Sequence record: MZ501107
Length of the DNA stretch: 43,627 nucleotides
From: Escherichia phage TheodorHerzl
Reading direction: 5' to 3' (one strand)
Part shown: positions 1,948 to 40,731 of the stretch, piece by piece
Numbering within the stretch: the first letter of the stretch is position 1
Layout of the letters: each line of letters begins with the position of its first letter
Translations under genes and position numbers: made by a program
The notes under the pieces: model-generated
The model's database searches: none
What the model saw: the letters and a program-made list of their open reading frames with translations, nothing else
What the model was told of the DNA's origin: nothing

Positions 1948-3468
1948 ATGACCGTTAACGTTGACAACCAGCACCCGCTCTATGCGCGCATCGCGCCAGA
2001 GTGGAAAATGATCCGTGACTGTGTAGCAGGGGAGCGCGCCGTGAAGGCGTGCGGCCCCTTATACCTGCCACACCCAGCCAGTGGCGACAACACTGACCCG
2101 AAAGCACGGGCGCGGTATAAGGCGTACAAGCAACGCGCTGTATTCATGAACGCCACCGCCCGTACACTTAACGCGCTGTTAGGCGTTGCCTTTGCTAAAC
2201 CGGTAAGTCTGGACCTTTCCGGGGCAATGGCTGACCTGATTGACGACGTAGACGGCAGCGGTATGCCGCTGCCGCAACTCCTGCGCGGTGCTATGTCTGA
2301 AGTTCTGCAATCAGGCCGTGCGGGCTTTATGGTCGACTACGACCGCCAGGCGCATTTTGATGAACTTGGTAACGTAGTGCCGCAGACAGCCGCCGAGATG
2401 GCGTCACACCGCCCGCTTATCCGCCTGTACACGGCAGAACAGATCATCAACTGGCGGCAGACCCACGGCGTCGATACGCTAATTGTGCTGAAGGAGACGG
2501 ATGAAATCAGCACCGAAGACCCGGACGACTTCGCAAACCACGAAGTAACAATCTGGACCGAGCTTCGCATGATTAACGGTGCAGCACACGCCCGCCGCTG
2601 GTACTACAACGCCGACACGTCCGAGGTGCAAATGGACTTGCCGCGTGGATTCACCCGCACCGACCTTGTACCGCTGGTGGATGCTGCCGGTAATGCGCTG
2701 ACACAACTTCCGTTTTGCTGGTGTGGCGCGGTGGATAACAACGCGACGCCAGACGCCGCGCCGCTGGCGGATATTGCATCCATCAACATTAAGCACTACA
2801 ACGCCGAAGCGGACGTCGCCGAGATTGCGCACATCGTGGGCCAACCTACCCTGGTGGCAACTGGCTTGACTCAATCATGGGCGGACAAAAACCTGAAAGG
2901 CGGCATCGCGCTCGGAGCGACTAAGGGCGTTATCCTTGGCCAGAACATGGACGCCAAACTGATTCAGGCCGAGGAGCGCAACTTGTCTGTTACACTGTGT
3001 GAGCGACGCGAATTGCAAATGGCTAAACTGGGCGCGGCCCTGGTCGAGAAGGGGACCGCACCTAAGACGGCAACCGAGGCGGCATACGATGCGCAGACTG
3101 ATAACAGTATCCTGTCGCTTATTGCCGGTAACGTTGAGAAGGCTTTCAACCGTGCGCTGCAAATCGTCCAGCTATTCACGGGCGACACTGCCGACCAGCG
3201 CGTAACGCTGAACAAGTTCTACACCGAAATCACGGTTGATGCGCAGCTTATGACCGCGATGATGTCGGGGGTGCAGACCGGCACGGTCCGCCTGGCTGAC
3301 TTCATCAAGTGGATGATGGCGCAGGGTGTCATCGACGACTCGCAAACCGTCGAGCAGGTGGAAGACGAATTGCGAAATCAGAATCCATTGCCCCAAATGT
3401 CCCCCGATGCGGTAGAATCTACCGAAGAAGACCCGGACAAGGTAGCGGACGATGGCGAGAACAATTAA
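1948..3468 (+). CDS. portal protein
   Basis: 506 aa ORF immediately after terL, with RBS AAGGAAA upstream and an acidic C-terminus. Assignment by size and synteny. Confidence 0.85.
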   Translation: MTVNVDNQHPLYARIAPEWKMIRDCVAGERAVKACGPLYLPHPASGDNTDPKARARYKAYKQRAVFMNATARTLNALLGVAFAKPVSLDLSGAMADLIDDVDGSGMPLPQLLRGAMSEVLQSGRAGFMVDYDRQAHFDELGNVVPQTAAEMASHRPLIRLYTAEQIINWRQTHGVDTLIVLKETDEISTEDPDDFANHEVTIWTELRMINGAAHARRWYYNADTSEVQMDLPRGFTRTDLVPLVDAAGNALTQLPFCWCGAVDNNATPDAAPLADIASINIKHYNAEADVAEIAHIVGQPTLVATGLTQSWADKNLKGGIALGATKGVILGQNMDAKLIQAEERNLSVTLCERRELQMAKLGAALVEKGTAPKTATEAAYDAQTDNSILSLIAGNVEKAFNRALQIVQLFTGDTADQRVTLNKFYTEITVDAQLMTAMMSGVQTGTVRLADFIKWMMAQGVIDDSQTVEQVEDELRNQNPLPQMSPDAVESTEEDPDKVADDGENN

Positions 3469-4877: not shown

Positions 4878-4989
4878 CCCGTCCGCAGACCCCGACGAGG
4901 ATTTGATGATTGACGTGAAAAATATGGAATGCGGGGCGAATCTAAGGGCGCAGGTGCTGGAGTTGCAGCAAATAATTCGGGGGCCGTAA
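4759..4989 (+). CDS. putative o-spanin (Rz1-like outer-membrane lipoprotein)
   Basis: Signal peptide with lipobox MLRALTALIVILILSAC, a Pro-rich mature part with extra Cys, RBS GAGG 9 nt upstream. Starts inside the Rz-like ORF in a different frame and runs past its stop. Confidence 0.55.
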   Translation: MLRALTALIVILILSACGSSNVPLMPLTESALRPPCKFDSPSADPDEDLMIDVKNMECGANLRAQVLELQQIIRGP

Positions 4990-5002
4990 TGGCCCCTTTT
5001 TG
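4978..5002 (+). terminator. intrinsic terminator after the spanin pair (possibly bidirectional)
   Basis: GC hairpin GGGGCC-GTAAT-GGCCCC followed by TTTTTG; it overlaps the o-spanin stop. Coordinates approximate. Confidence 0.6.
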
Positions 5003-10391: not shown

Positions 10392-10421
10392 TTTGGTCGC
10401 TTAAATAGCGAGTGTTAATAT

Positions 10422-10448
10422 GGGGCCAGCAAGGCCCCTTTTTTTATT
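10422..10448 (+). terminator. intrinsic terminator after the major tail protein
   Basis: GGGGCC-AGCAA-GGCCCC followed by a run of eight T. Confidence 0.75.
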
Positions 10449-10461
10449 GGAGAATATTACA

Positions 10462-10824
10462 ATGGCTAAAGCACCACTCTTTACACTTGACCCTAAGCCG
10501 ACCTTTAAGCTGCCGATTGAGATCCCGCGCCCTGGTGAGAACGAACCAGGCAAGATGACGTTTACCGTCCGCCACCGCCCTATCGACGAATTTTCGCAGA
10601 CCATGCAGGACACCGAACGCAAGTTGTCGGAGTATGACGACAATGACCCGGACGGCTTTAACGTTATGGTCGAGGCCATCATGCACGTCGCAGAAGGCTG
10701 GAATCTGCCGGACGAATTTAACGCGGAGAACGTCCGCCGCCTGGTGGTCAACTATCCACGCGCGTTCGGTGTGTTCCACACTTCGTACTATCTCGAACTG
10801 ATGGGATTGCGTGAAAAAAACTAA
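10462..10824 (+). CDS. tail assembly chaperone (G-like)
   Basis: 120 aa from ATG 10462. Ends MGLREKN* with a slippery A-run at its 3-prime end; an open -1 frame continues downstream. Confidence 0.75.
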   Translation: MAKAPLFTLDPKPTFKLPIEIPRPGENEPGKMTFTVRHRPIDEFSQTMQDTERKLSEYDDNDPDGFNVMVEAIMHVAEGWNLPDEFNAENVRRLVVNYPRAFGVFHTSYYLELMGLREKN

Positions 10825-11138
10825 TTGAGGCGGCGCGACGCTTTTATGGCCCGCCGCCACCCTCCGAAGATTTAGCCGCAAGTTTATGGGGTGCGACCCC
10901 CGAAGATGTTTGTCCGCCTGTTGCGCTGTGGCCTGACAACGCGAAGATAGTCGCAGTCTTCACAGATTGCGCCACGCAATGGCGCACCGGATTTGGTGGC
11001 GCATACGGCATCGACTACGGCGTGATGGAGTGGTTATTTAAGATGCACGGTATCGAAAACGAGCAGCGCGCGTTTAAAGATATCAAGCTAATGGAACGAA
11101 TCGCGCTTGATGAGATGGCGCAGCAGAACCCCGCATAA
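10462..11138 (+). CDS. tail assembly chaperone GT fusion, produced by -1 frameshift near 10815-10821
   Basis: The -1 frame extension reads LIEAARRFYGPPPPSEDLAASLWGATPEDVCPPVALWPDNAKIVAVFTDCATQWRTGFGG...MAQQNPA and sits where the T-extension is conserved in siphoviruses. Confidence 0.6.
10815..10821 (+). other. programmed -1 ribosomal frameshift site (A AAA AAC)
   Basis: Heptamer A_AAA_AAC spans the last codons of the G-like ORF. The -1 frame (codon starts divisible by 3) stays open to TAA at 11136-11138. Confidence 0.65.
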
Positions 11139-11258
11139 TGAAGCGGGACAGGCGGGACGTCCCGTTTTGTCCCACCCCTGTGAAACTGCATACCTACTCA
11201 CTTCCATTGCATAATATAAAAGCGGGACAGGCGGGACGTCCCGTTTTGTCCCACCCCA
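11136..11258. repeat. direct repeat: two copies of a ~39-bp unit AAGCGGGACAGGCGGGACGTCCCGTTTTGTCCCACCCC spaced ~80 bp
   Basis: The unit appears identically at about 11141-11178 and 11220-11257. Each contains the palindrome GGGACGTCCC flanked by GGGACA and TGTCCC. Confidence 0.85.
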
Positions 11259-11299
11259 CAAAAGTGCATACGTATTCGGTTTTCGTGCATAAAACAAAC

Positions 11300-11400
11300 T
11301 GGACAAAAAGCGGGACAAACACTAGGCGGGACAAAGCGGGACAGCACCCCGTCCCAGCCAGTGCTGCCGCGGTTTTCAGCCGATCGGGACAGCGGGACAG
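11300..11400. repeat. GGGACA iteron block A
   Basis: Repeated GCGGGACA(A/G) units; about 70 bp is nearly identical to 38636-38705. Confidence 0.8.
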
Positions 11401-11405
11401 CACCC

Positions 11406-11453
11406 CAGTCTTTCAGACTAGACGGGGGTCAACGGCCCCCCTCGTCTGAGACT
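11406..11453 (+). repeat. conserved long imperfect hairpin A (copy of 38757-38803)
   Basis: CAGTCTTTCAGACTAGACGGGGGTCAACGG(C5-6)TCGTCTGAGACT followed by GAATAA. Inverted arms TCAGAC/GTCTGA and GGGGG/CCCCC. This copy appears to carry one extra C relative to copy B, judged from the reading frame of the overlapping ORF in the track. Confidence 0.75.
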
Positions 11454-11522
11454 GAATAAGGTTTGTTTTGAAATCGCTGATACAATATCCATCGGCAACT
11501 GCATAAAAAAGGGGACTGCATA

Positions 11523-14165
11523 ATGGCAGATCAGGCAGCAGGCATCACGCTAAAGGCTGATGTTGCACAAATCAGAACGGCAAATACTGTGCTGGACTCC
11601 TTCGCACAGAAATCCGAGAACACAGAAAACAAGGTTAAGAAATTAAACGACACCCTCGGCAAATCCAAAAAGGTGACGAGTGACGCCGCGGGCGGAATGG
11701 AAAAGCTGGCAAACGAATCGCAGCGCGCCGCCGATGGCATGACGAAACAGGAGCGACTCGCCAACAGGTTAGGGATGTCGACTAAAAACCTGGGCTTTGC
11801 CTCGCGTAACGCCGCATTCCAGCTACAGGATATTGCGGTAACGCTTGAGATGGGTATGCCGGTTCACCGCGTCATGCTTCAGCAGTTACCGCAGCTAACT
11901 GGGGCGTTCGGTGGACTGGGTAACACGCTGCGTTATGTTGCGGGCTTCCTCGGCCCAGTAGGGATCGGCCTCGCCGCCGTAACGGCAACGTTAGGCGTGG
12001 GCGTGGCAATTACGTCCCGCGCAGAGAACCAGGTCGCCGCGCTTAACAAGACGCTGGCGCTGTCAGGTAACATTTCCGGCCTGACGGCAAACCAGATCCT
12101 GGTGTTATCCGAGAACGCCGAGCGCATGGGCGGATCATTCCGCAAGACGCGTGACACAATCCAGGCGCTGGCGGCGGCGGGTGTGAAAGCGGGTGGTGAC
12201 TTCGGTGCATTGGCTAAGGTAGTGAATGACTTCGCGAAGGTGTCCAGCCAGCCGATCGAGGATGTGGTCGCGGCGGTGGCGAAGCTGTCTACAGACCCGG
12301 TAGGCGGCTTGCGAGCATTGGCTGATAAGTATCACGTCGTAAACGAAGCGCAGATCCAGCAGGTGCAGTCACTAATGACGGCTGGTCGCGAAACCGAAGC
12401 GGTGGCGCTGGCTAACAAAACAGCCGCGGCGTCGTTTACCACTATGACCAACGATATTAAGTCCAGCATGGGTACGCTTGAGCGGTCGATGAACGTCGTT
12501 ACATCGGCAGCTAAATCTATGTGGGATGCCATCCTGGATGTCGGGCGCGCGCAGTCCTCGAATGAGTCAGAGATGAAAGCGCGTGAATCATTGCAGCGAC
12601 TGACCACGGCTTACTATGCCGAGATGAAAGCGGTAAACGCTGCCGGTGGGGTGATGACCGAAGCGCAGAAAGCACGTATTAACATGCTTTATAGCGAAAT
12701 GGTCGCCCAGGAGAAAGTAGTCGCGTCGCTCACCCTGCGCAACCGTGCAGAGCGTGACAACGCCAACGCCGCGGAACAATCAGCAAAGGCGAACGAGGAG
12801 GCAAACCGCACTGCCCGCGACCGCGCCGCGTTTGAGAAGGAGTACGCAACCAACGCTAAGCGGCGCGCCGACGAGATCGCCCGCCTCAATTTGCTTAATA
12901 AGCGCGGCGTGATTAACGAGAAAGAGCTTGCCGAGGCGGTGAAGCAGGTAAACGAGCGTTACAAAGACCCCGCCCCGAAGAAGGCCGCCGCTGTTCGAGT
13001 CGATGCCGGGCTGAAAATGCTGGAGGTCGCACGGAGCGAACTGGCACAGCTTCGGGAATCAGGCAAGCAGATTGAGGCCAACTCTTCGACGCAGACCCGC
13101 ACGCAACGAGCGCAAGCGGCCCTTAACAAGCTGATTGCCGACAACGAGCAGTTAATCGCCGCGAGCAAAGAAAGGGCGCTGACGGCAGCAGAGAAGCAGC
13201 AATTAGTCGAGTTCGGACGCGTGAAGGAAGTACGTGAGCAGATCGTCGAAGAAGCCAAATTGCTGGACGCGAAAGAGAAGCAGGTCAAGGCGCACGCGCA
13301 GATCGACGCCTTCGTTAAGAACCAGAACGCCGAGCTAAAAGCCACCGCGGCGGGATATGCGCTTTCCACTCGCGAAGCGGCTAACCTGCGCGAAGAATTG
13401 CAGCTAATTGACCGCCTTAAGCGGGTGGGCGCTAGCGATACCGATATTGATCTGGCGGTGTCTAAGCTGCGCGAAGTGCAGGAAGCACAGACCGGTGCTA
13501 ATGCCTCGTTGTGGGATGGCTTCAGCCGCGGGCTTAAGGATAGCGTGGATGAAATGGGTAACTGTTATACGCAGATGGCGTCACTCACAAAATTCACGTT
13601 CGGCGCTATGCAGGACACGATGAACGAGTTTTTCGAGACTGGCAAGCTGAACGCAAAGGATATGGTTAAGTCCATCCTGAGCGAATTAATCAAGCTGGCT
13701 ACATCGCAGGCATTCAAGTCCATCGTTAACGCTTTCGGTGGTGACGGCGGCAAAAACGGATTGTTCGGCGCTATCTTCTCTGGCCTCACTAAGAATGCGG
13801 ACGGCGGAGCGTACGCAGGGGGCAATCTCGCGGCCTATTCGGGGAAAGTGGTAAGCCAGCCTACCTTTTTCAGTTATGGCGTTCAGGCGTTCGCTAAGGG
13901 CGCGGGATTGATGGGCGAGGCTGGACCCGAGGCCATCATGCCACTGAAGCGCGGGCCGGACGGGAAACTGGGCGTTGCCGCGTCTGGAGCAGGCGGAGGT
14001 ATGGTCGTGACGACTAACGTTTACACGGGGTCCGGTAAAACAGATACCAGTGTCAGCGGGCCGGACCCCCGTACCGCGCAGGCGTTCGGCAAGCAAATCA
14101 CCGAAGCGGTGAAGGCCGAGATCGTGAAAGCGACGAAACCGGGTGGTGTACTTTACAAACGATGA
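11523..14165 (+). CDS. tape measure protein
   Basis: 880 aa, largely alpha-helical and Ala/Gln-rich, with Gly-rich hydrophobic segments. Lies after the G/GT genes. Confidence 0.9.
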   Translation: MADQAAGITLKADVAQIRTANTVLDSFAQKSENTENKVKKLNDTLGKSKKVTSDAAGGMEKLANESQRAADGMTKQERLANRLGMSTKNLGFASRNAAFQLQDIAVTLEMGMPVHRVMLQQLPQLTGAFGGLGNTLRYVAGFLGPVGIGLAAVTATLGVGVAITSRAENQVAALNKTLALSGNISGLTANQILVLSENAERMGGSFRKTRDTIQALAAAGVKAGGDFGALAKVVNDFAKVSSQPIEDVVAAVAKLSTDPVGGLRALADKYHVVNEAQIQQVQSLMTAGRETEAVALANKTAAASFTTMTNDIKSSMGTLERSMNVVTSAAKSMWDAILDVGRAQSSNESEMKARESLQRLTTAYYAEMKAVNAAGGVMTEAQKARINMLYSEMVAQEKVVASLTLRNRAERDNANAAEQSAKANEEANRTARDRAAFEKEYATNAKRRADEIARLNLLNKRGVINEKELAEAVKQVNERYKDPAPKKAAAVRVDAGLKMLEVARSELAQLRESGKQIEANSSTQTRTQRAQAALNKLIADNEQLIAASKERALTAAEKQQLVEFGRVKEVREQIVEEAKLLDAKEKQVKAHAQIDAFVKNQNAELKATAAGYALSTREAANLREELQLIDRLKRVGASDTDIDLAVSKLREVQEAQTGANASLWDGFSRGLKDSVDEMGNCYTQMASLTKFTFGAMQDTMNEFFETGKLNAKDMVKSILSELIKLATSQAFKSIVNAFGGDGGKNGLFGAIFSGLTKNADGGAYAGGNLAAYSGKVVSQPTFFSYGVQAFAKGAGLMGEAGPEAIMPLKRGPDGKLGVAASGAGGGMVVTTNVYTGSGKTDTSVSGPDPRTAQAFGKQITEAVKAEIVKATKPGGVLYKR

Positions 14166-21654: not shown

Positions 21655-23379
21655 ATGGCAGCGGGTACGCTCTCCGTAACGAACAATAGCAAGGCGGTAG
21701 TAGGGGTCGGCACAACGTTCACCGCGTTCAAGGCTGGCGACTTCTTATCGCTGGTGGTAGGGCAAGTGCCTTACACCGTAGCGATCGCATCAATCGAAAG
21801 TAACACGGCGCTTACGCTGGTGCTGCCGTTCGACGGCCCAACGGCAACCGGCCTTGCGTGGGACGGCGTTAAACGCGATACCCTGTCACTGGCAACGATG
21901 GGCGTTACCGTCCAGGCCCAGAAAGCATTGCGCTTGATGATTGCCGACGAAAACAACTGGCGTGCAATCTTCGGCGAAGAAGAAGAAATCTCGGTCACGC
22001 TACCTAACGGTCAAGTGGTGCAGGGTATGTCGTGGGGCTATTTGTCCTCCTTGCTGAAGGAAGTAGACCCCGTTGAGATGCGCAACCTTCAACAACAGGC
22101 CGAGAACGCTCGCAACCAGGCGCAAGGCTACCGTGATGAGGCGGAAGGTTTTAAAAACCAGATTAACCCTGCACTATTCGTGCAGAAGTCCCAAAACCTG
22201 AATGACGTTGCCGATAAAGCTGAGGCGCGCGCTAACTTGCAAGTTTTATTTGCGTCAAACTCTAACCTGGGGTCTACCGACCTCAACACGCTCAACAGCA
22301 CGAAGGAAGGGCGTTATTACCAGACCACATCGGTGAACGCTACACCAGAGCGTAACTACCCGTTTCAGGAAGCCGGTTGTCTTACCGTGTTTAAAACCGG
22401 CGGGGGTAGTGTGGAGGCTTGCATCCAGGAGTACACCACGTTTTCAAGCCTGCGTCGGTTCGTCCGTGCGCTCGCTGGGGCGGTGTGGACGGAGTGGAAG
22501 GAGATCTACCTGCAAGGGTCGTCCCCAACATACGAAAATATCGACTCGACAGGACGAGTTAGATCTGAAAAGGCATATCCGGCGTTCGAGTGGGTGTCGA
22601 CGAGAGTAGACGACGATTTCATCGGTAAGCGAGTCAGCATTGAGAACGACACAGGCGTTAATATGTATATGTTCTTCATGCAGAAAGACACAACCGCAAA
22701 CAGACGTGTCGTAGCGTTCGCAAGGCCAAACTCTACTGTTTTCCACTTCGTAGGATATAACGGCGGGCTACCCACAGACGGCAACAGCGCCCCGTCGGAT
22801 AACATTAACTTTAACACGCAACCGCAAGGATGGCGTATGGTGTCCGGCGGCTGGCAAAATGCACCGCTCGCCGGGAACAACTACGGGACTTTATTCACGC
22901 AGTGTGTGCAAGGTGTGTCGCAGGGGGATTCTAAAAACAGCGGCACTTCTGGCCTATGGTACTCACAGCGATATTTTAATACAGAATCGCGGGCGTTTAT
23001 CCGAAATCAAACAAACAACGCAGACTGGGGCGGGTGGTATGAATTTACTAAAACGGCAGTCTCGGATGAACGCCTGAAGAATGTAAAAGGTAATTTGAAT
23101 GTTGAAGGTGCGCTCGATAACATCAACCGCATGGAATTTAAAATATTCTCGTTTAAGGATGAGAAGGCCGGTAAGGGGTATCGTCGCGGTGTTATCTCGC
23201 AGCAGATTCGCCAGATCGATAAAGAGTACACGAAGGAGATCGGCGGGTACTATCACCTCGACCAGACACCAATGCTACTGGACGCCCTAGCGGCAATTAA
23301 GGCGTTGCGTGCGCGTGACGAGGCTAATAAAGCAGAGATTGCAGAACTGAAGGCGGCTATTGCCGAATTGAAGCAATAA
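21655..23379 (+). CDS. tail fibre protein with C-terminal intramolecular chaperone (S74-like) domain
   Basis: 574 aa with RBS AAGAGGA. The C-terminal ~105 aa begin at the SDERLKN motif and end in a coiled coil, typical of self-cleaving fibre chaperone domains. N-terminus is homologous to the 14202 gene product. Confidence 0.8.
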   Translation: MAAGTLSVTNNSKAVVGVGTTFTAFKAGDFLSLVVGQVPYTVAIASIESNTALTLVLPFDGPTATGLAWDGVKRDTLSLATMGVTVQAQKALRLMIADENNWRAIFGEEEEISVTLPNGQVVQGMSWGYLSSLLKEVDPVEMRNLQQQAENARNQAQGYRDEAEGFKNQINPALFVQKSQNLNDVADKAEARANLQVLFASNSNLGSTDLNTLNSTKEGRYYQTTSVNATPERNYPFQEAGCLTVFKTGGGSVEACIQEYTTFSSLRRFVRALAGAVWTEWKEIYLQGSSPTYENIDSTGRVRSEKAYPAFEWVSTRVDDDFIGKRVSIENDTGVNMYMFFMQKDTTANRRVVAFARPNSTVFHFVGYNGGLPTDGNSAPSDNINFNTQPQGWRMVSGGWQNAPLAGNNYGTLFTQCVQGVSQGDSKNSGTSGLWYSQRYFNTESRAFIRNQTNNADWGGWYEFTKTAVSDERLKNVKGNLNVEGALDNINRMEFKIFSFKDEKAGKGYRRGVISQQIRQIDKEYTKEIGGYYHLDQTPMLLDALAAIKALRARDEANKAEIAELKAAIAELKQ

Positions 23380-23383
23380 ATAG

Positions 23384-23409
23384 AAGGGGCCGTATGGCCC
23401 CTTTTTTAG
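23384..23409. terminator. terminator between the convergent tail fibre gene and the minus-strand early operon
   Basis: AAGGGGCC-GTAT-GGCCCC followed by six T. Confidence 0.75.
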
Positions 23410-32137: not shown

Positions 32138-32860
32138 TTAACGGCGGCGACGTTTACGTGGCGCTTCGTCTTCCTCATCGTCGTCGTCATCGCGGCGCTT
32201 GGATTTCTTGGACTTGCGCGGCTTGTCATCTTCATCATCGTCATCACGACGTTTTGACTTTTTGGACTTGCGCGGTGCTTCGTCTTCGTCGTCGTTGTCC
32301 AGGTCTTCATCGGAGCAAGAAGACCCGCCACCTCCGAAGGCTTCGCCGTCTTCACGGAATCGCAGACCCAGCAAGCCAGCCCCGAGACCCTTGCCGTTGG
32401 TATTGTTCCATGCCCAAATATCAAGGGACACGTTGCAATAACAACCGGAGTAGATCTCCTGGCCTTCAATCTCGTCGCCGTCGATGGTCAGACCTTGTTC
32501 AGTCTGCTTCTCGCCGAGTGACGTTTGAATGATTGGTTGTTTGAACGATTTGGCGTTGATATACAACATGCCTTCGAATTCTTCGGTTACTTCATCGCGC
32601 TCGTCACCGTCGCGGACTGCGCATTCCTTAGAATCCTGGGCGTAGTGGCGGTCCATCCACTTATCGGCATTCTTCTCAGATTTCAGCTTGTCGGTGAGCA
32701 CTGCGCGTGCTGCCGCTTCCACTTTGTCCACCTGCGGATCTTCTTTATCAAGAAGAATCACGGCACGGTATGCCGGTTTTTGTCCATCCTGTTTAGGGGT
32801 ATCACGTTCCCAAATTTTCAGGAAACATACGCGCACATTTTTCAGGTTGACTTTAGCCAT
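32138..32860 (-). CDS. ssDNA-binding-like protein (DUF2815-like) with repetitive charged C-terminal tail
   Basis: 240 aa from ATG 32860 with RBS GAGGA. The N-terminus MAKVNLKNVRVCFLKIWE resembles the phage SSB-like DUF2815 family as I recall it. The C-terminus carries tandem DDDDEDD/PRKSKKSKRR repeats. Confidence 0.65.
   Translation of the reverse strand: MAKVNLKNVRVCFLKIWERDTPKQDGQKPAYRAVILLDKEDPQVDKVEAAARAVLTDKLKSEKNADKWMDRHYAQDSKECAVRDGDERDEVTEEFEGMLYINAKSFKQPIIQTSLGEKQTEQGLTIDGDEIEGQEIYSGCYCNVSLDIWAWNNTNGKGLGAGLLGLRFREDGEAFGGGGSSCSDEDLDNDDEDEAPRKSKKSKRRDDDDEDDKPRKSKKSKRRDDDDDEEDEAPRKRRRR
32160..32300 (-). repeat. in-frame tandem DNA repeat (~63-bp unit, about 2.5 copies) encoding alternating basic/acidic blocks
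   Basis: The segment TTGGATTTCTTGGACTTGCGCGG...TCATCTTCATCATCGTCATCA recurs as TTGACTTTTTGGACTTGCGCGG...TCGTCTTCGTCGTCG on the plus strand. Coordinates approximate. Confidence 0.7.
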
Positions 32861-32950
32861 TTTCCAATTCCTCATTTTCACATGTATCGGGGTTATTGGA
32901 AGCCACCCCGTTCGGCTTGGTTGCCAATTTACTTGGTTGCGCCTGAGCGG

Positions 32951-35104: not shown

Positions 35105-35536
35105 TTAGTCTTCCAGTTCGAAATAGGTTTCGACGATTTCTTTTAGCTCTTTGTGGAAGTCTTCGACGTCGTCATCTTCCAGCTTGGCGATTGATTTGAT
35201 CTCGAACGATTCCAGCAGGTCGTCGAATTCGTCGTTCGCGTCGTCGTCGTCACCACCGGCAATAATCGCGGCATACTGTTTGATCTCGTCGCGCATCTCT
35301 GCCAGCGGATCGGCATCTTTCTTACCTTTGCCCTTCGCCGGTGCTTTTTTAGCTTTAGCCGGTTTTTCGTCTTCGGCGTCATCTTCGGCGTCATCTTCGA
35401 CAACTTCTTTTTTGGCCTTAGACGGCTTCTTGTCTTCCTGTTTACCAACGGCAGCGCCAACGGTTTCATAATGCTTTGCAATGGTTTCCAGTGCTACTAC
35501 GCCGCGAGTGATCAGGTTTACGATTTGCTCAAACAT
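35105..35536 (-). CDS. highly acidic protein with central Lys/Ala-rich segment; first gene of the leftward early operon
   Basis: 143 aa with RBS GGAGA. Rich in Asp/Glu (DDAEDDAEDE, GGDDDDANDEFDD, LEDDDVEDF), with a central KPAKAKKAPAKGKGKK segment. Confidence 0.6.
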   Translation of the reverse strand: MFEQIVNLITRGVVALETIAKHYETVGAAVGKQEDKKPSKAKKEVVEDDAEDDAEDEKPAKAKKAPAKGKGKKDADPLAEMRDEIKQYAAIIAGGDDDDANDEFDDLLESFEIKSIAKLEDDDVEDFHKELKEIVETYFELED

Positions 35537-35937: not shown

Positions 35938-36267
35938 ATGAATGTAAACGACGCAATCGAAATGTTAACGAAGACTGTTAGCAGTGAAACAAGCCGGTCA
36001 TGGGCTTATACCGATGCCGTTGGGGCGGTATTATTTGAGGTCGAGCGCCTGCGCAGTGTCGAGAAAGAATTACGCGCCAGGCTGGGATTGCTCAACGGCA
36101 CGGCAGCGAGCAAGCTACAAAAACACAATGAAGAAATGGAAGAATACAAAAAGCAGGTTATCCGTTTGCGCGCCGAGGGTAAATCGTGGGCGATGATTGC
36201 CGAGTTGACCGGGATTAATCAGAGCACAGTGCGCTCCTGGGTACGCAATAATAAAACTTCTAAGTAA
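35938..36267 (+). CDS. HTH DNA-binding protein (putative transcriptional regulator)
   Basis: 109 aa with RBS GAGGG. C-terminal helix-turn-helix KSWAMIAELTGINQSTVRSWVRNN. First gene of the rightward operon; a near-palindrome TTGGTCATTAACCAA overlaps its RBS region. Confidence 0.65.
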   Translation: MNVNDAIEMLTKTVSSETSRSWAYTDAVGAVLFEVERLRSVEKELRARLGLLNGTAASKLQKHNEEMEEYKKQVIRLRAEGKSWAMIAELTGINQSTVRSWVRNNKTSK

Positions 36268-36277
36268 GGCCACGGCA

Positions 36278-38542
36278 ATGAGCTTAATTAAATTCGCTGT
36301 AACAAGACCCGCTAAAAAAGGCGAAAAAGCCAGGGCGGAAAACTTCCAGATGACGACCGATGAGTTTTTCGAATTTATCAAAGATGCGAAAGAAATCTCC
36401 TCGGTGCATATCAACAAGACGGAAGATAAAGCCGAGTATGCGCGCCGCAAGCGTAAGGCCGATGGCATCGTGGCGTATACCAGTGACGGATTGCGTCGTA
36501 AGACCAGTGCGGTGGACCGCTCGATCCTGTTCTTTGATATTGACCGCACCGACACCCGCACCCTGCGCCGCTGCCGTAAGGCGTTCATCGACGCGGGTCT
36601 GGAACACGTATTTCACACCACCACCGGCGACCGCCACCCGCTGAAGGGCGGCACGCGTTGCGCCCGTTTCCTGGTGTTCACTGACAAGCCTGTACCGGCT
36701 GAAGACCTGGGCCGCGTCCAGTATGCACTATTACACCAACTGGGTCTGTCAGATGTGGACTTCGACGATTGCACGAAAGACACAAACCGCCTGATGTACC
36801 TGCCACACCAGCAGTCCGTTATTAAGTGCCACTATGGCAAGCGCGCCAATGTGCGTCGTCTACTCCGTCGGGCGGACAAGCTGGGGGTGGAAAAAGAGGA
36901 AGTACGCCGCGAGCTTACCCAGGGCGACGACGCAGTGGCAGACGGCATTCTGGACTGGTGCTTCCAGGCCGGATTCGAGGAGTTATCTTCTGGTCGCGGT
37001 TATGAAGTGCCGTGCCCGAACGAACATCTGCACAGCGGCGAAGGGTCGACGGCTATCATGGTCAAGGATGGCGAGATCCGTTTCAAGTGTATGCACACCG
37101 GCAACGAGTGTTGCTCGGAACTGAACAGACACCAGCACCTGGCGCTACGTCTTATCGGGATCCCGGACCACCTGAACGTCGAACCGCACAACATGTCACG
37201 TAAGCAAATCGCCGCCATCCTCCCAGGACTGGACGACGAGGAAGTGGAATCGTGCTATGAACATATCGTTGATGCGGTCGGTGACGGCGACGAGTACGGC
37301 GGATGTACGGACGCAGACCTTGACAACGAGCCGGTTGCGCTGTTCAGTAAGCACGACCCGATCATCGAGGGGTTGATTAACTTTAAATCGACCTGGTACA
37401 TGGCGGGTGAGTCGAACATCGGTAAGTCTTTCTACGTGCTGGGCCAGATGGGCGCGGTTGCCGCGGGTATTCCGTTCGGCGGCGCTAAGGTCGTCCAGTC
37501 CCATTGTTTCTATTTCGATGCGGAAGGCGGCGAAGCCTCCAACCAGCGTAAGGAAGCATTGCAGATTAAATATGAGCACGACCTGGACAAGCTGCACATT
37601 ATCGATCTGCAATCACGCGGCTGGGATATCACCAGCAAATCCGGCTTGCGTGAAGTTATCAGCTTCATCAACCGCACCGCTAACGGCGAACCGGTTGGCC
37701 TGGTGGCCTTCGACTCACTCAACCAGACTGTTGCGCTGCGGTCCGCGGATTCTAAGCCGTTCGACGAGAACAACGCCAGCGATATGGGTGAAGTGGTCAA
37801 GGCGCTGAAGGCCATTGCGGAAAATACAGGCGGAAGTGCGGGCGTCATCCACCACCCGGCGAAGGGTGCAAACGGCAGCAGAACGCCACGCGGGTCCGGC
37901 GCGCTTCATGGTGCTGTCGATTCTGCGTTCTTCCTGGAGCAACCGGACGACAATCAGCCGGGCCAATTGAACCTGTATCACGAAAAGGCACGTAACGGCA
38001 TCAAGCAAGCGCCGCGCGGCTTCGTCCTGCTCAAGTGCAAGGTTAAGGTGGATCTCCGCAAGTCCGAAGCGTTCGAAGCCCACCAGTCCACCAGCACCGG
38101 GCCGGACTTCGGTGATGTGGTTGCCGGTTGGGACGTCAAGCCGATCGCATCCACGCCACGCGACGAGACTCTTTATCTCGTACCGGTCGCCCTGGCACCG
38201 TTCGCCATCGAACAGGCGAAGGCCGCGGGTAAGGCAGCAGTTAAGGAAGAGAACGCCGCAGGGCCGCGCAACGAAAAAGAGAAAGTGCTTTATGCGGCAC
38301 TGGAAAAACTGATGGAAGATAACCCGGACCATACCGGATTCAGTAAATCGGCAATCGTCCGCCAGGCGGGATTGGCAAAAGGTGGCACATCGACGAAGGC
38401 AATCGACGATATGGTCGAGCGCGGCGTACTCGGTTTTTATACCGATCCGCACACCGGGGCCATCTATGGGTCGTCGAATATCGTCATCAAAACGAATATA
38501 CCCATCACGCTTTCTGCGACCGATGACGACCTGAAAGATTAA
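36278..38542 (+). CDS. primase-helicase (N-terminal primase-like domain with zinc-binding motif, C-terminal RecA-like AAA_25 ATPase)
   Basis: 754 aa. Cys/His cluster CPNEHLHSGEGS...KCMHTGNEC, Walker A AGESNIGKS, and Walker B LVAFDSL. Confidence 0.8.
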   Translation: MSLIKFAVTRPAKKGEKARAENFQMTTDEFFEFIKDAKEISSVHINKTEDKAEYARRKRKADGIVAYTSDGLRRKTSAVDRSILFFDIDRTDTRTLRRCRKAFIDAGLEHVFHTTTGDRHPLKGGTRCARFLVFTDKPVPAEDLGRVQYALLHQLGLSDVDFDDCTKDTNRLMYLPHQQSVIKCHYGKRANVRRLLRRADKLGVEKEEVRRELTQGDDAVADGILDWCFQAGFEELSSGRGYEVPCPNEHLHSGEGSTAIMVKDGEIRFKCMHTGNECCSELNRHQHLALRLIGIPDHLNVEPHNMSRKQIAAILPGLDDEEVESCYEHIVDAVGDGDEYGGCTDADLDNEPVALFSKHDPIIEGLINFKSTWYMAGESNIGKSFYVLGQMGAVAAGIPFGGAKVVQSHCFYFDAEGGEASNQRKEALQIKYEHDLDKLHIIDLQSRGWDITSKSGLREVISFINRTANGEPVGLVAFDSLNQTVALRSADSKPFDENNASDMGEVVKALKAIAENTGGSAGVIHHPAKGANGSRTPRGSGALHGAVDSAFFLEQPDDNQPGQLNLYHEKARNGIKQAPRGFVLLKCKVKVDLRKSEAFEAHQSTSTGPDFGDVVAGWDVKPIASTPRDETLYLVPVALAPFAIEQAKAAGKAAVKEENAAGPRNEKEKVLYAALEKLMEDNPDHTGFSKSAIVRQAGLAKGGTSTKAIDDMVERGVLGFYTDPHTGAIYGSSNIVIKTNIPITLSATDDDLKD

Positions 38543-38588
38543 ATTTTGCGCGCATTGGTTGCCATTTTGAGTGTTTTTATCTGGTCGT

Positions 38589-38616
38589 ATTGGTTGCCGT
38601 GTAGTGTAAGTATAAT
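38589..38616 (+). promoter_or_regulatory. ATTGGTTGCC motif copies followed by a TATAAT -10 box
   Basis: Motif copies at 38554-38563 and 38589-38598; TATAAT at 38611-38616 (anchored to the track ORF that starts at 38546). Confidence 0.4.
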
Positions 38617-38635
38617 GAATAGTTATGCAATAAAA

Positions 38636-38756
38636 CTGCATAAACCAAACGGGACAAAAAGCGGGACAAACACTAGGCGGGACAAAGCGGGACAGCACCC
38701 CCGTCCCGCCCCGGATGACGCGGCCTGGAGAGGAGCGGGACAGCGGGACAGCACCC
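38636..38756. repeat. GGGACA iteron block B (homologous to 11287-11400)
   Basis: GGGACA at 38651, 38663, 38679, 38689, 38738 and 38745. The block TGCATAAACCAAACGGGACAAAAAGCGGGACAAACACTAGGCGGGACAAAGCGGGACAGCACCCCCGTCCC is nearly identical to region A. Confidence 0.8.
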
Positions 38757-38803
38757 CAGTCTTTCAGACTAGACGGGGGTCAACGGCCCCCTCGTCTGAG
38801 ACT
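38757..38803 (+). repeat. conserved long imperfect hairpin B (copy of 11406-11453)
   Basis: CAGTCTTTCAGACTAGACGGGGGTCAACGGCCCCCTCGTCTGAGACT followed by GAATAA. Confidence 0.8.
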
Positions 38804-38958
38804 GAATAAAATCCGAGGATTGCAAATTACACGGCAGCATGTTGCGAAGTGCGGTCGCGGATGAACTAGGCAACCAATGCGAGTTGTATTATGCTGAGTG
38901 AAAAATGTGGTTTGCAGTCACAGCAGATAGCGATCGACTTTTTCATGCGCGTGATTAA

Positions 38959-38993
38959 TATTGGTTGCATTCACCCCGGCACCTTGTTATATT
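38959..38993 (+). promoter_or_regulatory. sigma70-like promoter TTGCAT-N17-TATATT with flanking ATTGGTTGCA copies
   Basis: ATTGGTTGCAT at 38959-38969; TATATT at 38988-38993, followed immediately by TGGTTGCAC. Lies about 30 nt upstream of the 39021 gene. Confidence 0.55.
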
Positions 38994-39020
38994 GGTTGCA
39001 CACCAACGGGAGGGCGGAAC

Positions 39021-39200
39021 ATGAAAACCGAAATGGTTAATAAGCGCGAAATCAAGATCGGCGATACGGTAGTCCACAACGGGGAGCTTCGCACTGTGTG
39101 CAAGCGAGCGTTTAGCATCGATGAATTTATGGGCCTGCTACTTTGGGGCGACAGCTATCGTTTAGGGCATAAACTGGTTGAGAGGGTTACGGAACTATGA
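39021..39200 (+). CDS. hypothetical protein
   Basis: 59 aa from the ATG with RBS GGGAGGG. Confidence 0.45.
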   Translation: MKTEMVNKREIKIGDTVVHNGELRTVCKRAFSIDEFMGLLLWGDSYRLGHKLVERVTEL

Positions 39201-39523
39201 AAGCGATTATCTGGAATTACGCAATGGCTATGGCGGCGGCACAAGAAGCGGCGGAGTTCGCCGGTGAAGGAGCGGAAGCGGTCGAAAGACTATCGGCAGC
39301 GTGGTCCGTTGTTCGCGTCACGCAGCAGGCCATCGCCTGTATGCTTGAGCGCCGTTTCGACACGATGGCGGAGATCCAGCCTCTGGCGAACGCAATCCAG
39401 GACTACGCGCTTGCATTTGCCCGTGAGCGCCTGGCGTATCGCTTCGGGATCGGCGAGACGGCAGTGACAAACGTCGCCCGGATTAAAGCCCAGCGCGAAC
39501 TATTTGCCCAGCTTGCGAAATAA
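39197..39523 (+). CDS. hypothetical protein
   Basis: 108 aa with ATGA overlap to the upstream gene. Confidence 0.5.
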   Translation: MKAIIWNYAMAMAAAQEAAEFAGEGAEAVERLSAAWSVVRVTQQAIACMLERRFDTMAEIQPLANAIQDYALAFARERLAYRFGIGETAVTNVARIKAQRELFAQLAK

Positions 39524-39951: not shown

Positions 39952-40508
39952 AATTACTATTCCGCCGTAAAGCAGATGGCTTCCCCATGAGGCCGATCCA
40001 GACCCTTGATACATGCGTGCGCTTGCGCCATGTACACAGCGGCCTTGAGAGCCTGGCAGATACGGCCCACCTACCGGCAAACTTTGACGTACTTACACAT
40101 GATATCGAGCGCGGCGATGTGCTGCGTGATATACGCAACGGGCAATTGTGGGTCGTGGAGCACACCCACCAGCACGGCTTGCGTATGCAATCCCGCAAGG
40201 ATGGCGTAGTAGTCGGGATGACGTACTTCGGGCTAATCCACTACGAGCGCGTGGGCCGCAAATACAGCCTCCGCAAACGCCAGCCGCATGAGCGCGTCGA
40301 GTTCCGCAAGTCGCAGCCCGCCTACGCAACCTACGACGCCCACCAGGTGCAAGCGAGGATGAAACGCGCCGCGCACGAAATCGTCAATCGCTTTGATGCC
40401 GTGACGAATGCGCAACGCCATGCGCAGGAATACGGCGTTGGATTCATCCGGGTGGAACAAGACGGCAGCATGAAAGCCATCGACCCGCGCTCGGTGATTC
40501 TGAAATGA
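39948..40508 (+). CDS. hypothetical protein
   Basis: 186 aa from the ATG with RBS GAGGAG. Confidence 0.55.
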   Translation: MKLLFRRKADGFPMRPIQTLDTCVRLRHVHSGLESLADTAHLPANFDVLTHDIERGDVLRDIRNGQLWVVEHTHQHGLRMQSRKDGVVVGMTYFGLIHYERVGRKYSLRKRQPHERVEFRKSQPAYATYDAHQVQARMKRAAHEIVNRFDAVTNAQRHAQEYGVGFIRVEQDGSMKAIDPRSVILK

Positions 40509-40651
40509 GTGCGTCTATCCGTGATATGCTGATGCACAACCGCTTTGAGATCGGCGGTCGGGTGTTTCGCAATTACTTCGTGGCGCGTGCATGGGCGCGC
40601 CATATTGGCAAACCGGAAGGGGCAATTCGATGCTATACGTCTTCGCGGTAG
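40505..40651 (+). CDS. small hypothetical protein (48 aa)
   Basis: ATGA overlap with the upstream gene. Confidence 0.3.
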   Translation: MSASIRDMLMHNRFEIGGRVFRNYFVARAWARHIGKPEGAIRCYTSSR

Positions 40652-40731
40652 TATGTGGCGGTAGTCTGGCGGCCCTGGTGCTGTTGGCGTCGGTTATTAG
40701 TCTGGTTAAATACCTATGGGGCAGATTATGA
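40630..40731 (+). CDS. small hydrophobic peptide (33 aa, one transmembrane segment)
   Basis: Reads MLYVFAVVCGGSLAALVLLASVISLVKYLWGRL and overlaps its neighbours. Confidence 0.3.
   Translation: MLYVFAVVCGGSLAALVLLASVISLVKYLWGRL

Follow-up and report, generated by a model that had tools for sequence, protein, structure and literature searches.

What is the 478-bp non-coding gap directly downstream of the primase-helicase gene of Escherichia phage TheodorHerzl (MZ501107) for? The window, i.e., the whole 43,627-nt stretch of DNA that was analysed, is the genome of a Dhillonvirus (an HK578/SO-1-like E. coli siphophage) with a T7-like replication module comprising a family A polymerase, a gp2.5-like SSB, and an exonuclease. 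The Dhillonviruses SECphi4, SECphi18, Bas14-18, and HK578 are standard test phages for anti-phage defence, and the replication origin and regulatory sites of the group are so far unmapped.

The repeats themselves are already annotated. The record of Sodalis phage SO-1 (NC_013600) carries "repeat_region" annotations at 11214-11597, in the gap between gp16 and the tape-measure gene ("region A"), and at 40178-40657, 3' of the helicase-primase; its text describes direct, inverted, and palindromic repeats, with A similar to B. These loci are orthologous to regions A and B of the window. Literature searches found neither a functional study of the element nor a paper describing the SO-1 regions. Elsewhere, annotation pipelines called terminators on the unit hairpins (HK578 and CS16), some relatives' records present the element as a "hypothetical protein", and a published table for Edwardsiella phage eiAU implies a gap of ~870 bp from the chaperone to the tape-measure gene. 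In our reading, region B is most likely where replication of the phage starts or, failing that, an assembly platform for the replication-initiation machinery. We give this reading, an iteron-type origin with a Dhillonvirus-specific, ori/crr-like second copy, about an even chance of being right.

The region and the gene in front of it are laid out as follows (window positions).

36278-38542, + strand: primase-helicase gene, 754 aa, the candidate protein acting on the element
38543-39020: intergenic region B, read from the sequence and flagged by the sequence-only reading
38603-38647: AT-rich leader, 73 to 77% A+T by A+T profile, directly 5' of the first unit
38637-38810, + strand: copy B of a duplicated ~174-nt unit, from comparison of copies A and B
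38650, 38662, 38678, and 38688 (38650-38694), + strand: four direct CGGGACA units, spaced 12, 16, and 10 nt
38701-38707, - strand: inverted unit GTCCCGC, which together with direct unit four makes up a short palindrome or hairpin
38708-38735: central G+C-rich spacer, locus specific and not homogenised between A and B
38736 and 38744 (38736-38750), + strand: two tight CGGGACA units with starts 8 nt apart
C38757-G38804: imperfect 48-nt stem-loop, -26.5 kcal/mol

In the duplicated unit, the AT-rich leader is thus followed by four direct CGGGACA units and an inverted one, and these by a locus-specific spacer, two tight units, and the stem-loop. Where at least six GGGACA iterons had been reported from sequence inspection, we count six direct CGGGACA units plus the inverted copy; the accompanying 47-nt hairpin (38757-38803) is there too but is one base longer, ending at G38804. 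Thirteen of the 16 CGGGACA matches in the window fall in just two regions (384 and 478 bp), and a total of 16 was reached in none of 100 shuffles (genome-wide expectation, 6.4 +/- 2.6). The units are irregularly spaced (8 to 16 nt); in 22 distinct copies, their positions are constant and it is the spacers that change. The leader, a candidate unwinding element, contains TATAAT (38611-38616) and the inverted pair TTATGCA/TGCATAA, and its TGAATAGTTATGCA...TG(C/A)ATAA sequence is kept in phiEap-2, SE1, and L024 to L027. The stem-loop combines a base that is invariant in 22 to 31 distinct copies with a variable apical loop, followed by the flank CTG(A/C)ATAA, and the direct repeats TGCATAA ... CTG(A/C)ATAA mark the boundaries of the unit. 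No DnaA box (up to one mismatch) or IHF consensus was found in region A or B, and a GATC scan of the regions was negative; to our knowledge, DnaA and IHF sites are not obligatory for phage origins.

A second, near-identical copy had been claimed in the tail operon, and alignment bears this out.

11139-11522: intergenic region A, from the stop of the frameshifted tail chaperone GT (TAA, 11136-11138) to the tape-measure start (11523)
11141-11178 and 11220-11257: two identical 38-nt palindromic CGGGAC units, AAGCGGGACAGGCGGGACGTCCCGTTTTGTCCCACCCC, missed by the sequence-only reading
11286-11459, + strand: copy A of the duplicated unit, from alignment to copy B
11311, 11327, 11337, 11385, and 11393, + strand: CGGGACA units of copy A, plus a degenerate TGGACA at 11300
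11405-11454: copy A stem-loop

Positions 11286-11440 and 38637-38791 align without gaps at 88% identity (about 90% over 175 nt), and in both copies the duplicated unit extends from TGCATAA to CTGAATAA, with ~30 nt in the middle differing. Each AAGCGGGACAGGCGGGACGTCCCGTTTTGTCCCACCCC palindrome is followed by TGCATA-N15-TGCATAA. The two 174-nt direct repeats lie 27 kb apart, and both are present in every complete genome. Within a genome, A and B share 86 to 97% identity in their iteron blocks, compared with 83 to 86% between genomes, which shows that the copies are kept matched. The central spacer shows 55 to 75% identity between A and B within a genome and 84% between the A copies of different genomes. 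Gene conversion may match the iteron and hairpin blocks of copy A to those of copy B. No tail-operon copy was found in the relatives examined outside Dhillonvirus; neither tblastn with the tape-measure N-terminus nor an IMG/VR search with the tail chaperone reached the sister lineages and their GT-TMP junction.

The suggested check for conservation in related genomes gave a clear result: the element is present in 157 of 157 Dhillonvirus-type records, at two or more places in nearly all of them, and is real and under selection. In every lineage examined, and in unrelated lineages as well, it lies directly 3' of the primase-helicase. The shared layout (AT-rich leader, 3 to 5 units, inverted unit, ~30-nt spacer, 2 to 3 tight units, and long stem-loop) directly follows the primase-helicase stop codon where the helicase is just 43 to 69% identical. 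At least eight different units occupy this homologous position, among them the following.

L024 and L025: GTGTGGCA
L026: GTGTGCCA
L174 and L175: GGTGCCA
phiEap-2: CGGACAA
SE1: GGGGGAGA
L028 and L030: ACTCGCAA/TCGCAA

Because the unit sequence varies by lineage at a constant layout, the pattern fits sites that are read by a protein. The units are always sense oriented relative to the upstream gene, unrelated lineages included, and in several lineages, units of either orientation occur, as do perfect DNA palindromes.

An exact CGGGACARAAAGCGGGACA scan of IMG/VR found arrays in unrelated phages too. Some CGGGACA arrays fall within genes for O-like replication initiators (phrog_345, E = 1e-21), in one case with a dnaB-like helicase gene adjoining, and others are immediately 3' of 728- to 752-aa proteins with an AAA_25 helicase core; the N-terminal domain match of one such protein (L200) is weak. 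In a further group, GTGTGGCA arrays plus a hairpin lie between a TOPRIM + RepA-like primase-helicase and ssb, and the matches listed in a degenerate IMG/VR scan for GTGTGGCA-N(1-14)-GTGTGGCA are chance matches. IMG/VR searches with a hairpin-stem 19-mer and a 22-mer (tight pair plus flank) returned only ~42- to 45-kb contigs, all Dhillonvirus except one contig of a 68% sister lineage, which matched the hairpin 19-mer only. The element was found in none of 5,426 E. coli genomes and none of 72,556 plasmids.

Several properties of region B are those of an origin: a cluster of short repeats far above chance, an adjoining A+T-rich segment, linkage to an initiator/helicase gene, and a repeat specific to the replicon lineage, whereas the host-factor sites that such origins often have (DnaA boxes and IHF) are missing. 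The sequence-only reading had weighed an origin against a late-promoter or antitermination element. The former is supported indirectly by the position, the lineage-specific units, the O-like genes, and the winged helix of the primase-helicase; antitermination or termination gains nothing, as there is no U-tract and no Rfam match and the stem-loop folds equally well on both strands. The turning points of the cumulative GC skew, near 35.5 kb and 23 kb, follow gene orientation and therefore provide no independent origin signal. Other observations speak against an origin: the 8- to 16-nt unit spacing is unlike that of classical 17- to 22-bp iterons, the inside of a late tail operon is an odd place for a copy, and a constant sense orientation would also be expected of an RNA-level or transcription-coupled element.

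From this arrangement, we infer a sequence of binding, unwinding, and priming that would give region B origin activity. A phage protein would recognise the CGGGACA heptamers in direct-repeat as well as palindromic arrangement; the primase-helicase, acting through its C-terminal winged-helix domain, is the best candidate. Binding would open the adjoining AT-rich leader and load the RepA-like helicase. The invariant stem base and CTG(A/C)ATAA, once single stranded, may then mark where the AEP-type primase domain primes or is loaded, a role that would resemble that of the RSF1010 ssi hairpins. Copy A may be a duplicate platform, either a second origin or a cis-enhancer like crr of phage P4.

The domain order of the primase-helicase is an AEP-like N-terminal domain, a Cys/His cluster, a RepA-like RecA-fold helicase, and a C-terminal winged helix. 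The sole Pfam match of the window protein is AAA_25, BT4734-like_N also being matched by the N-terminal regions of three of nine homologues, and the helicase core is closest in structure to 1g8y/1olo/1nlf (target-normalised TM-score [TMt], 0.62 to 0.63). Within +/-3 kb, only this protein and one other are common to all lineages.

35938-36267, + strand: 109-aa HTH protein (HTH_23/Sigma70_r4_2-like)

The HTH protein was ruled out as the iteron reader, its recognition helix being invariant across lineages whatever their iteron type; it is therefore a likelier reader of ATTGGTTGC than of CGGGACA. A presence/absence screen of the neighbourhood genes yielded no candidate iteron reader, and in sliding identity along the primase-helicase, no domain tracked iteron type. 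Group-specific residues are mildly enriched in its last 150 aa (11/22 versus 6/28). The candidate "KS" residues fail as iteron readers in the GGTGCCA lineages. Comparison by hhalign of the C-terminal winged helix with the O-like initiators that share the iteron detected no homology. A C-terminal profile matched the TALE-like BurrH repeats with a summed E-value of 8e-33, a value inflated by ~20 repeats that are individually non-significant, and this match was therefore treated as a short-motif resemblance and rejected.

The closest parallels differ in which parts they share with the element. In satellite phage P4, the alpha protein, with a TOPRIM-type primase, an SF3 helicase, and a C-terminal winged-helix origin-binding domain, recognises ori and crr. 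These likewise consist of short (7- to 8-bp) direct and inverted repeats with irregular spacing, likewise form two separate repeat loci per genome, and likewise have one locus beside a single multifunctional primase-helicase with a C-terminal winged helix. That winged helix is shared, but alpha is not homologous to the Dhillonvirus protein, which combines an AEP/BT4734-like primase with a RecA-fold RepA/AAA_25 helicase, and P4 lacks the terminal stem-loop. The oriV of IncQ plasmid RSF1010 has iterons, a GC-rich/AT-rich segment, and the ssiA and ssiB hairpins, served by the RepC initiator, the RepA helicase, and the RepB' primase. Iterons, a G+C-rich segment, and a conserved hairpin follow one another there as they do here, and the RSF1010 RepA type is the closest structural match of the helicase core. 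RepB' reads ssiA at the hairpin base, and the invariant stem base and variable apex of the present hairpin are the pattern expected of one recognised in this way. On the other hand, RSF1010 iterons are 20 bp long and regularly spaced, its two ssi hairpins lie on opposite strands, compared with a single hairpin in each copy here, and it divides the initiator, helicase, and primase functions among three proteins.

In phage lambda, the origin lies within the O gene. Similarly, O-like/DnaD-like genes of unrelated contigs hold the dimer CGGGACA-RAAAG-CGGGACA and tandem CGGGACA with 11-nt phasing, and these arrays constrain the peptide IGTESGTG. In contrast, the array in the window is intergenic, no O-like gene is present, and no similarity could be detected between the winged helix of the primase-helicase and the N-terminal domain of the O-like proteins. 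A bolder combination is that region B is a self-contained, initiator-less origin, that its tail-operon copy is maintained by gene conversion, and that the cassette is exchanged between phages; we hold this joint reading only tentatively. One AEP-primase/RepA-helicase/winged-helix protein would read the heptamers, load itself, and prime at the ssi-like hairpin. The tail-operon platform may be a second origin or a crr-like enhancer, or may couple the entry of replication forks to the dosage of late genes or the expression of the tape-measure gene. Phages with different initiators, i.e., O-like proteins and primase-helicases, would have exchanged the iteron/ori cassette.

Among the alternatives, a transcriptional control site survives best, although we consider it rather unlikely. 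A phage regulator would bind the array where the early/replication genes (HTH protein and primase-helicase) meet the small-gene/lysis/structural genes, and again before the tape-measure gene. The bound array could be a platform for activation, a loading site for processive antitermination, or a protein roadblock or insulator. Both copies do occupy intergenic gaps that are transcribed, in the same orientation as the genes on either side, and copy B is upstream of a conserved promoter-like site (38965-38993) and flanked by operator-like ATTGGTTGC motifs. The constant sense orientation of the units, unrelated lineages included, and the terminators called by pipelines in HK578 and CS16 point the same way. 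However, the hairpins have no U-tract, and terminator scans of 38300-39300 and 10800-11800 found no + strand site; an intrinsic terminator is rejected, the stem-loop being followed by AATAAAATCC. Rfam 15 gave no gathering-score match, with nothing at E <= 5 for region B and only chance miRNA-hairpin look-alikes far below gathering scores for region A. The equal stability of the stem-loop on both strands also argues against this reading, as does the lack of a tail-operon copy in the relatives examined outside Dhillonvirus, and it does not predict the link to replication genes (including iterons within O-like genes).

An RNA element is improbable. Here, the purine-rich GGGACA repeats and terminal stem-loop, transcribed with the operon or from their own promoter, would form a structured noncoding RNA, a protein sponge, or an R-loop from which replication is primed in the manner of the T7 or ColE1 origins. 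T7 uses transcription at its origin, and the T7-like replication module of the window would be in keeping with this, as would the repeats' constant sense orientation. Compared with shuffled sequences, folding of the + strand is somewhat more stable (z = -1.8 and -2.5); over the whole unit, this is not so for the - strand (z = -0.5). For the stem-loop alone, in contrast, the - strand is as stable as the + strand or more so, with no G.U bias. In addition to the absent Rfam match, no convincing sigma-70 promoter stands in front of the unit, several lineages have both orientations and perfect DNA palindromes, and other phages carry the units inside protein-coding initiator genes.

Marginally less probable again is a repeat of selfish or neutral nature, or a site for another DNA transaction (recombination, packaging, or an anti-defence decoy), duplicated by recombination and kept similar by gene conversion alone. 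Concerted evolution of the two copies, the direct repeats bounding the unit, and the extra modular palindromes in region A would suit it, but the terminase genes (1-1937) are distant, the IMG/VR 19-mer and 22-mer matches are confined to ~42- to 45-kb Dhillonvirus contigs and the one sister-lineage contig, copy B keeps its position across helicases down to 43% identity while its unit changes, and deletion-prone 174-nt repeats 27 kb apart are both retained in every complete genome. A MITE or other transposable element is rejected for want of terminal inverted repeats and by the absence from E. coli genomes and plasmids, and protein coding is rejected because the ORF at 38546-38809 is not conserved and orthologous copies differ by 1-nt indels.

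If the preferred reading, a replication origin, is correct, region B would be the cis-site of a large clade, Dhillonvirus and Guernseyvirinae-like phages, with a replication module without a recognisable initiator. The lineage-specific units would be naturally occurring iteron variants from which to work out a specificity code, and the site would be a handle for phage-dependent plasmids and engineering. One would then also ask what favours retaining a second, homogenised copy in the tail operon when such repeats risk deletion. Should region B not be an origin, it would still be a conserved putative protein-binding array at the early/late boundary.

The remaining motifs of region B belong to another system.

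38554-38562 and 38589-38597, + strand: two ATTGGTTGC class-2 motifs, part of a genome-wide motif
38554 and 38589 (+ strand), 38870 (- strand), and 38960 and 38991 (+ strand): exact ATTGGTTGC copies in region B
38960-38999, + strand: promoter-like TTGCAT(38965)-N17-TATATT(38988), 38965-38993, within two ATTGGTTGC copies and upstream of the 39021 gene

The ATTGGTTGC pair and TATAAT box noted earlier downstream of the primase-helicase gene are indeed present (38554, 38589, and 38611-38616). The ATTGGTTGCC motifs are not part of the duplicated element. The window holds 14 exact ATTGGTTGC copies, all intergenic and mostly paired, and the motif is kept in relatives whose iteron differs; it is a separate genome-wide promoter/operator-type motif outside the duplicated element. 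TATAAT has no -35 partner at 16 to 18 nt, and a promoter scan of 38300-39300 returned 0 sites. The proposed TTGCAT-N17-TATATT promoter falls below the consensus-scan threshold because its -35 matches at 3 of 6 positions, but the sequence itself is present as described, and the same arrangement, with the same spacing, recurs in L023, L025, L026, and L027.

Of the 16 copies of the heptamer CGGGACA in the window (6.4 are expected, and none of the shuffles gets to 16), 13 lie inside two intergenic regions that each contain one copy of a duplicated element of repeat units and a stem-loop.

11139-11522, region A, tail operon
11286-11459, copy A of the element
35938-36267, + strand, 109-aa HTH protein
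36278-38542, + strand, primase-helicase (754 aa)
38543-39020, region B
38637-38810, copy B of the element
38757-38804, stem-loop of copy B

The sequence-only reading had proposed a GGGACA iteron block followed by a hairpin in region B, and both are borne out, as six direct units plus one inverted unit and as a stem-loop of -26.5 kcal/mol. The near identity claimed for the two copies holds overall (~90%) but not in a central stretch of ~30 nt, and the duplicated unit is better bounded as TGCATAA...CTGAATAA. The TATAAT box is present at 38611 but has no -35 partner, and the TTGCAT-N17-TATATT promoter, although kept at the same spacing in relatives, falls below the scanner threshold. Region A takes up the entire gap that separates the frameshifted tail chaperone (stop codon at 11138) from the tape-measure gene (start at 11523) and additionally has two 38-nt palindromic CGGGAC units, identical to each other. 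Within the chaperone (10420-11138), the frame 10824-11138 is open without its own start codon, which fits a programmed -1 frameshift (G/GT); its counterpart is annotated as a separate gene in SO-1 and HK578.

This duplicated cis-element is real and conserved. Its most likely identity is an iteron-type origin of a kind that had not been characterized before, a reading in which we place roughly even confidence. Conservation in related genomes, proposed earlier as a check, was found: the 478 bp of region B match 157 phage records at 80 to 95% identity, nearly all Dhillonvirus by classification or name (including HK578, SO-1, SECphi4/18, and BASEL Bas14-18), and the layout is kept beyond the genus. 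The element had no match in E. coli genomes or plasmids. In annotated relatives, the + strand carries terminase, head, and tail genes and the - strand a replication/modification block. Coding then returns to the + strand, with the small HTH protein and the primase-helicase ahead of region B, and small genes, holins, and endolysin beyond it. The SO-1 GenBank record already annotates both repeat regions as "region A" and "region B," and our literature search found no publication testing them; the existence of the element is already known, and the cross-lineage evidence appears to be new. In several GenBank records, a "hypothetical protein" is placed over the iteron array (e.g., PaulFeyerabend bas15_0052, 3073-3258 of record L002). 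These annotations are probably false gene calls, as the reading frame is not conserved; 1-nt indels among orthologous copies inside the annotated ORF rule out a protein-coding gene.

Among 22 to 31 distinct Dhillonvirus copies, the positions of the CGGGACA units are fixed and the spacers differ. Both the lower stem (CAGTCTTTCAGACTAGAC ... CGTCTGAGACTG) and the flank CTG(A/C)ATAA are invariant; the apical loop is free to vary. Between copies A and B of one genome, the iteron blocks are 86 to 97% identical, versus 83 to 86% between genomes, and the window and records L015-L018 have genome-specific spacer variants common to both copies, such as CACTAGG in the window, which is absent from all other aligned genomes. 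The central ~30-nt spacer, in contrast, is locus specific (A-A identity, 84%; A-B, ~62%). Concerted evolution of the iteron and hairpin blocks around a locus-specific spacer indicates that the copies are homogenized patch-wise, by gene conversion over a distance of 27 kb. This is consistent with a need for both copies to suit a single trans-acting factor. Within-genus conservation therefore overstates the amount of independent evidence.

Beyond the genus, we compared contigs whose primase-helicases are 67 to 69% and 44 to 49% identical to that of the window, together with three Guernseyvirinae-type genomes. All have a 360- to 1,000-bp non-coding region directly 3' of the primase-helicase gene, with the parts in the same order and differing units.

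Repeat units in relatives outside the genus (L-numbers are compared phage records or contigs)
CGGGACA: L023, L027
GTGTGGCA: L024, L025
GTGTGCCA: L026
GGTGCCA: L174, L175
CGGACAA: phiEap-2
GGGGGAGA: SE1
ACTCGCAA / TCGCAA: L028, L030
Still other units: L029, L031, Otaku

The terminal stem-loop keeps its shape with a changed sequence in L026, phiEap-2, and L030. An ancient architecture with lineage-swapped units is the hallmark of sites recognized by a cognate protein. Copy A appears to be Dhillonvirus specific: in Guernseyvirinae relatives the tape-measure gene directly follows the chaperone, and two independent pattern scans of the only complete genome from the 68% lineage in IMG/VR each showed a single copy. 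The central spacer between the two iteron blocks has a conserved GATTTATAAGGAG-like motif in L025, L026, L029, L174, and L175; its Dhillonvirus counterpart is G+C rich instead.

The strongest indirect evidence for origin iterons is the association of such arrays with replication genes in other phages. In an exact IMG/VR scan, the unit dimer CGGGACARAAAGCGGGACA was found in Dhillonviruses and in ten additional contigs. In three unrelated phage contigs (L191, L192, and L198), the arrays are embedded in an O-like/DnaD-like replication-initiator gene (phrog_345, 1e-21; in L191, ORF 1516-2391 of the reverse-complemented locus), much as the lambda origin lies inside the O gene, and in L192 this gene is preceded by a 447-aa ORF in which DnaB-type helicase motifs were recognized by eye. 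The CGGGACA arrays force an invariant peptide, IGTESGTG, in O-like proteins that share only 43% identity. Here, as at lambda ori, a constraint on the DNA is visible through the protein that it encodes. In L193/L195 and L200, the arrays are immediately 3' of 728- to 752-aa proteins with an AAA_25 helicase core; the N-terminal domain of the L200 protein matches weakly. A scan for GTGTGGCA pairs recovered another group of IMG/VR contigs (L033, L035, and L036; 13 to ~43 kb), in which GTGTGGCA units, a G+C-rich hairpin, and then ssb come after the gene for a 698-aa TOPRIM plus RepA-like primase-helicase, the same layout as in the window though the primase type is unrelated.

The primase-helicase is built of four parts: an N-terminal alpha/beta domain modelled with confidence (the AEP-family model BT4734-like_N was matched by 3 of 9 homologues), a Cys/His cluster, a RecA-fold helicase (AAA_25) whose nearest match by target-normalized TM-score is RSF1010 RepA, and a C-terminal three-helix-plus-wing domain. 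Almost all fold matches listed for the last are winged-helix domains, several from origin-recognition proteins. No segment of the protein follows iteron type; group-specific residues are only mildly enriched in its last 150 aa, the best candidate unit-reading residues fail in GGTGCCA lineages, and the winged helix has no detectable relation to the O-like initiators with the same iteron. Because it and the HTH protein are the only proteins common to all lineages within ±3 kb, the primase-helicase is the default candidate reader, by elimination only. A C-terminal profile (residues ~685-708; window 38330-38400) matches all ~20 repeats of BurrH (TALE-like) via the motif GFSxxxIVKxAGxxxGG; each single repeat match is non-significant, and the resemblance may be helix-loop-helix likeness only.

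If the element is an origin, a phage protein, probably the primase-helicase through its winged helix, would bind the heptamers, the AT-rich leader would melt, and the RepA-like helicase would load; once exposed, the stem-loop, whose base and flank are invariant, would serve as an ssi-like priming or loading signal, and copy A as a second origin or crr-like enhancer. GC skew only tracks gene orientation, and no DnaA or IHF sites were found. Functionally, the nearest analogue is P4 ori/crr and its alpha protein. That system, too, has two loci of short direct and inverted repeats and a primase-helicase ending in a winged helix; the two proteins are not homologous, however, and the window system is therefore not a P4 family member. 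RSF1010 oriV likewise combines a RepA-type helicase with iterons and then a hairpin. As a less likely but credible alternative, the element could act in transcription where early and late genes meet, as a roadblock, an activator platform, or an antitermination platform; no intrinsic terminator is found on its transcribed strand. Function as an RNA or R-loop seems improbable: no known RNA family was matched by the element, and an RNA-biased stem-loop was rejected, the - strand folding equally well or better and the + strand having no G.U pair excess. A selfish element or other DNA site is slightly less probable still.

The sequence-only reading had also placed copies of another motif, ATTGGTTGC, near the iterons. 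They are there, but outside the duplicated element.

5543, 5557, 21630, 24612, 26517, 26534, 29359, 35740, 38554, 38589, 38870, 38960, 38991, 39721, exact copies of ATTGGTTGC (14)

All are intergenic, most are paired (12 to 35 nt apart), and several overlap promoter-like sites, those at 38960/38991 covering the -35 and spacer of the conserved one. Since ATTGGTTGC is conserved in lineages with a different iteron, across which the recognition helix of the HTH protein (HTH_23/Sigma70_r4_2-like) is also invariant, we regard it as a distinct promoter/operator motif whose probable reader is that protein.

Elsewhere in the window, two similar G+C hairpins with T-runs (GGGGCCGTAATGGCCCCTTTTT; 4960-5001 and 23365-23406) lie where + and - strand genes converge and look like bidirectional intrinsic terminators; the HK578 annotation has terminators at the first site. 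Repeats of the TCGTCGTC type in - strand genes (32165-32300 and 35228-35429) code for runs of acidic residues (Asp/Glu) close to the C termini of a 247-aa ORF (32138-32881; by position, the gp2.5-like SSB of relatives) and a 143-aa protein.
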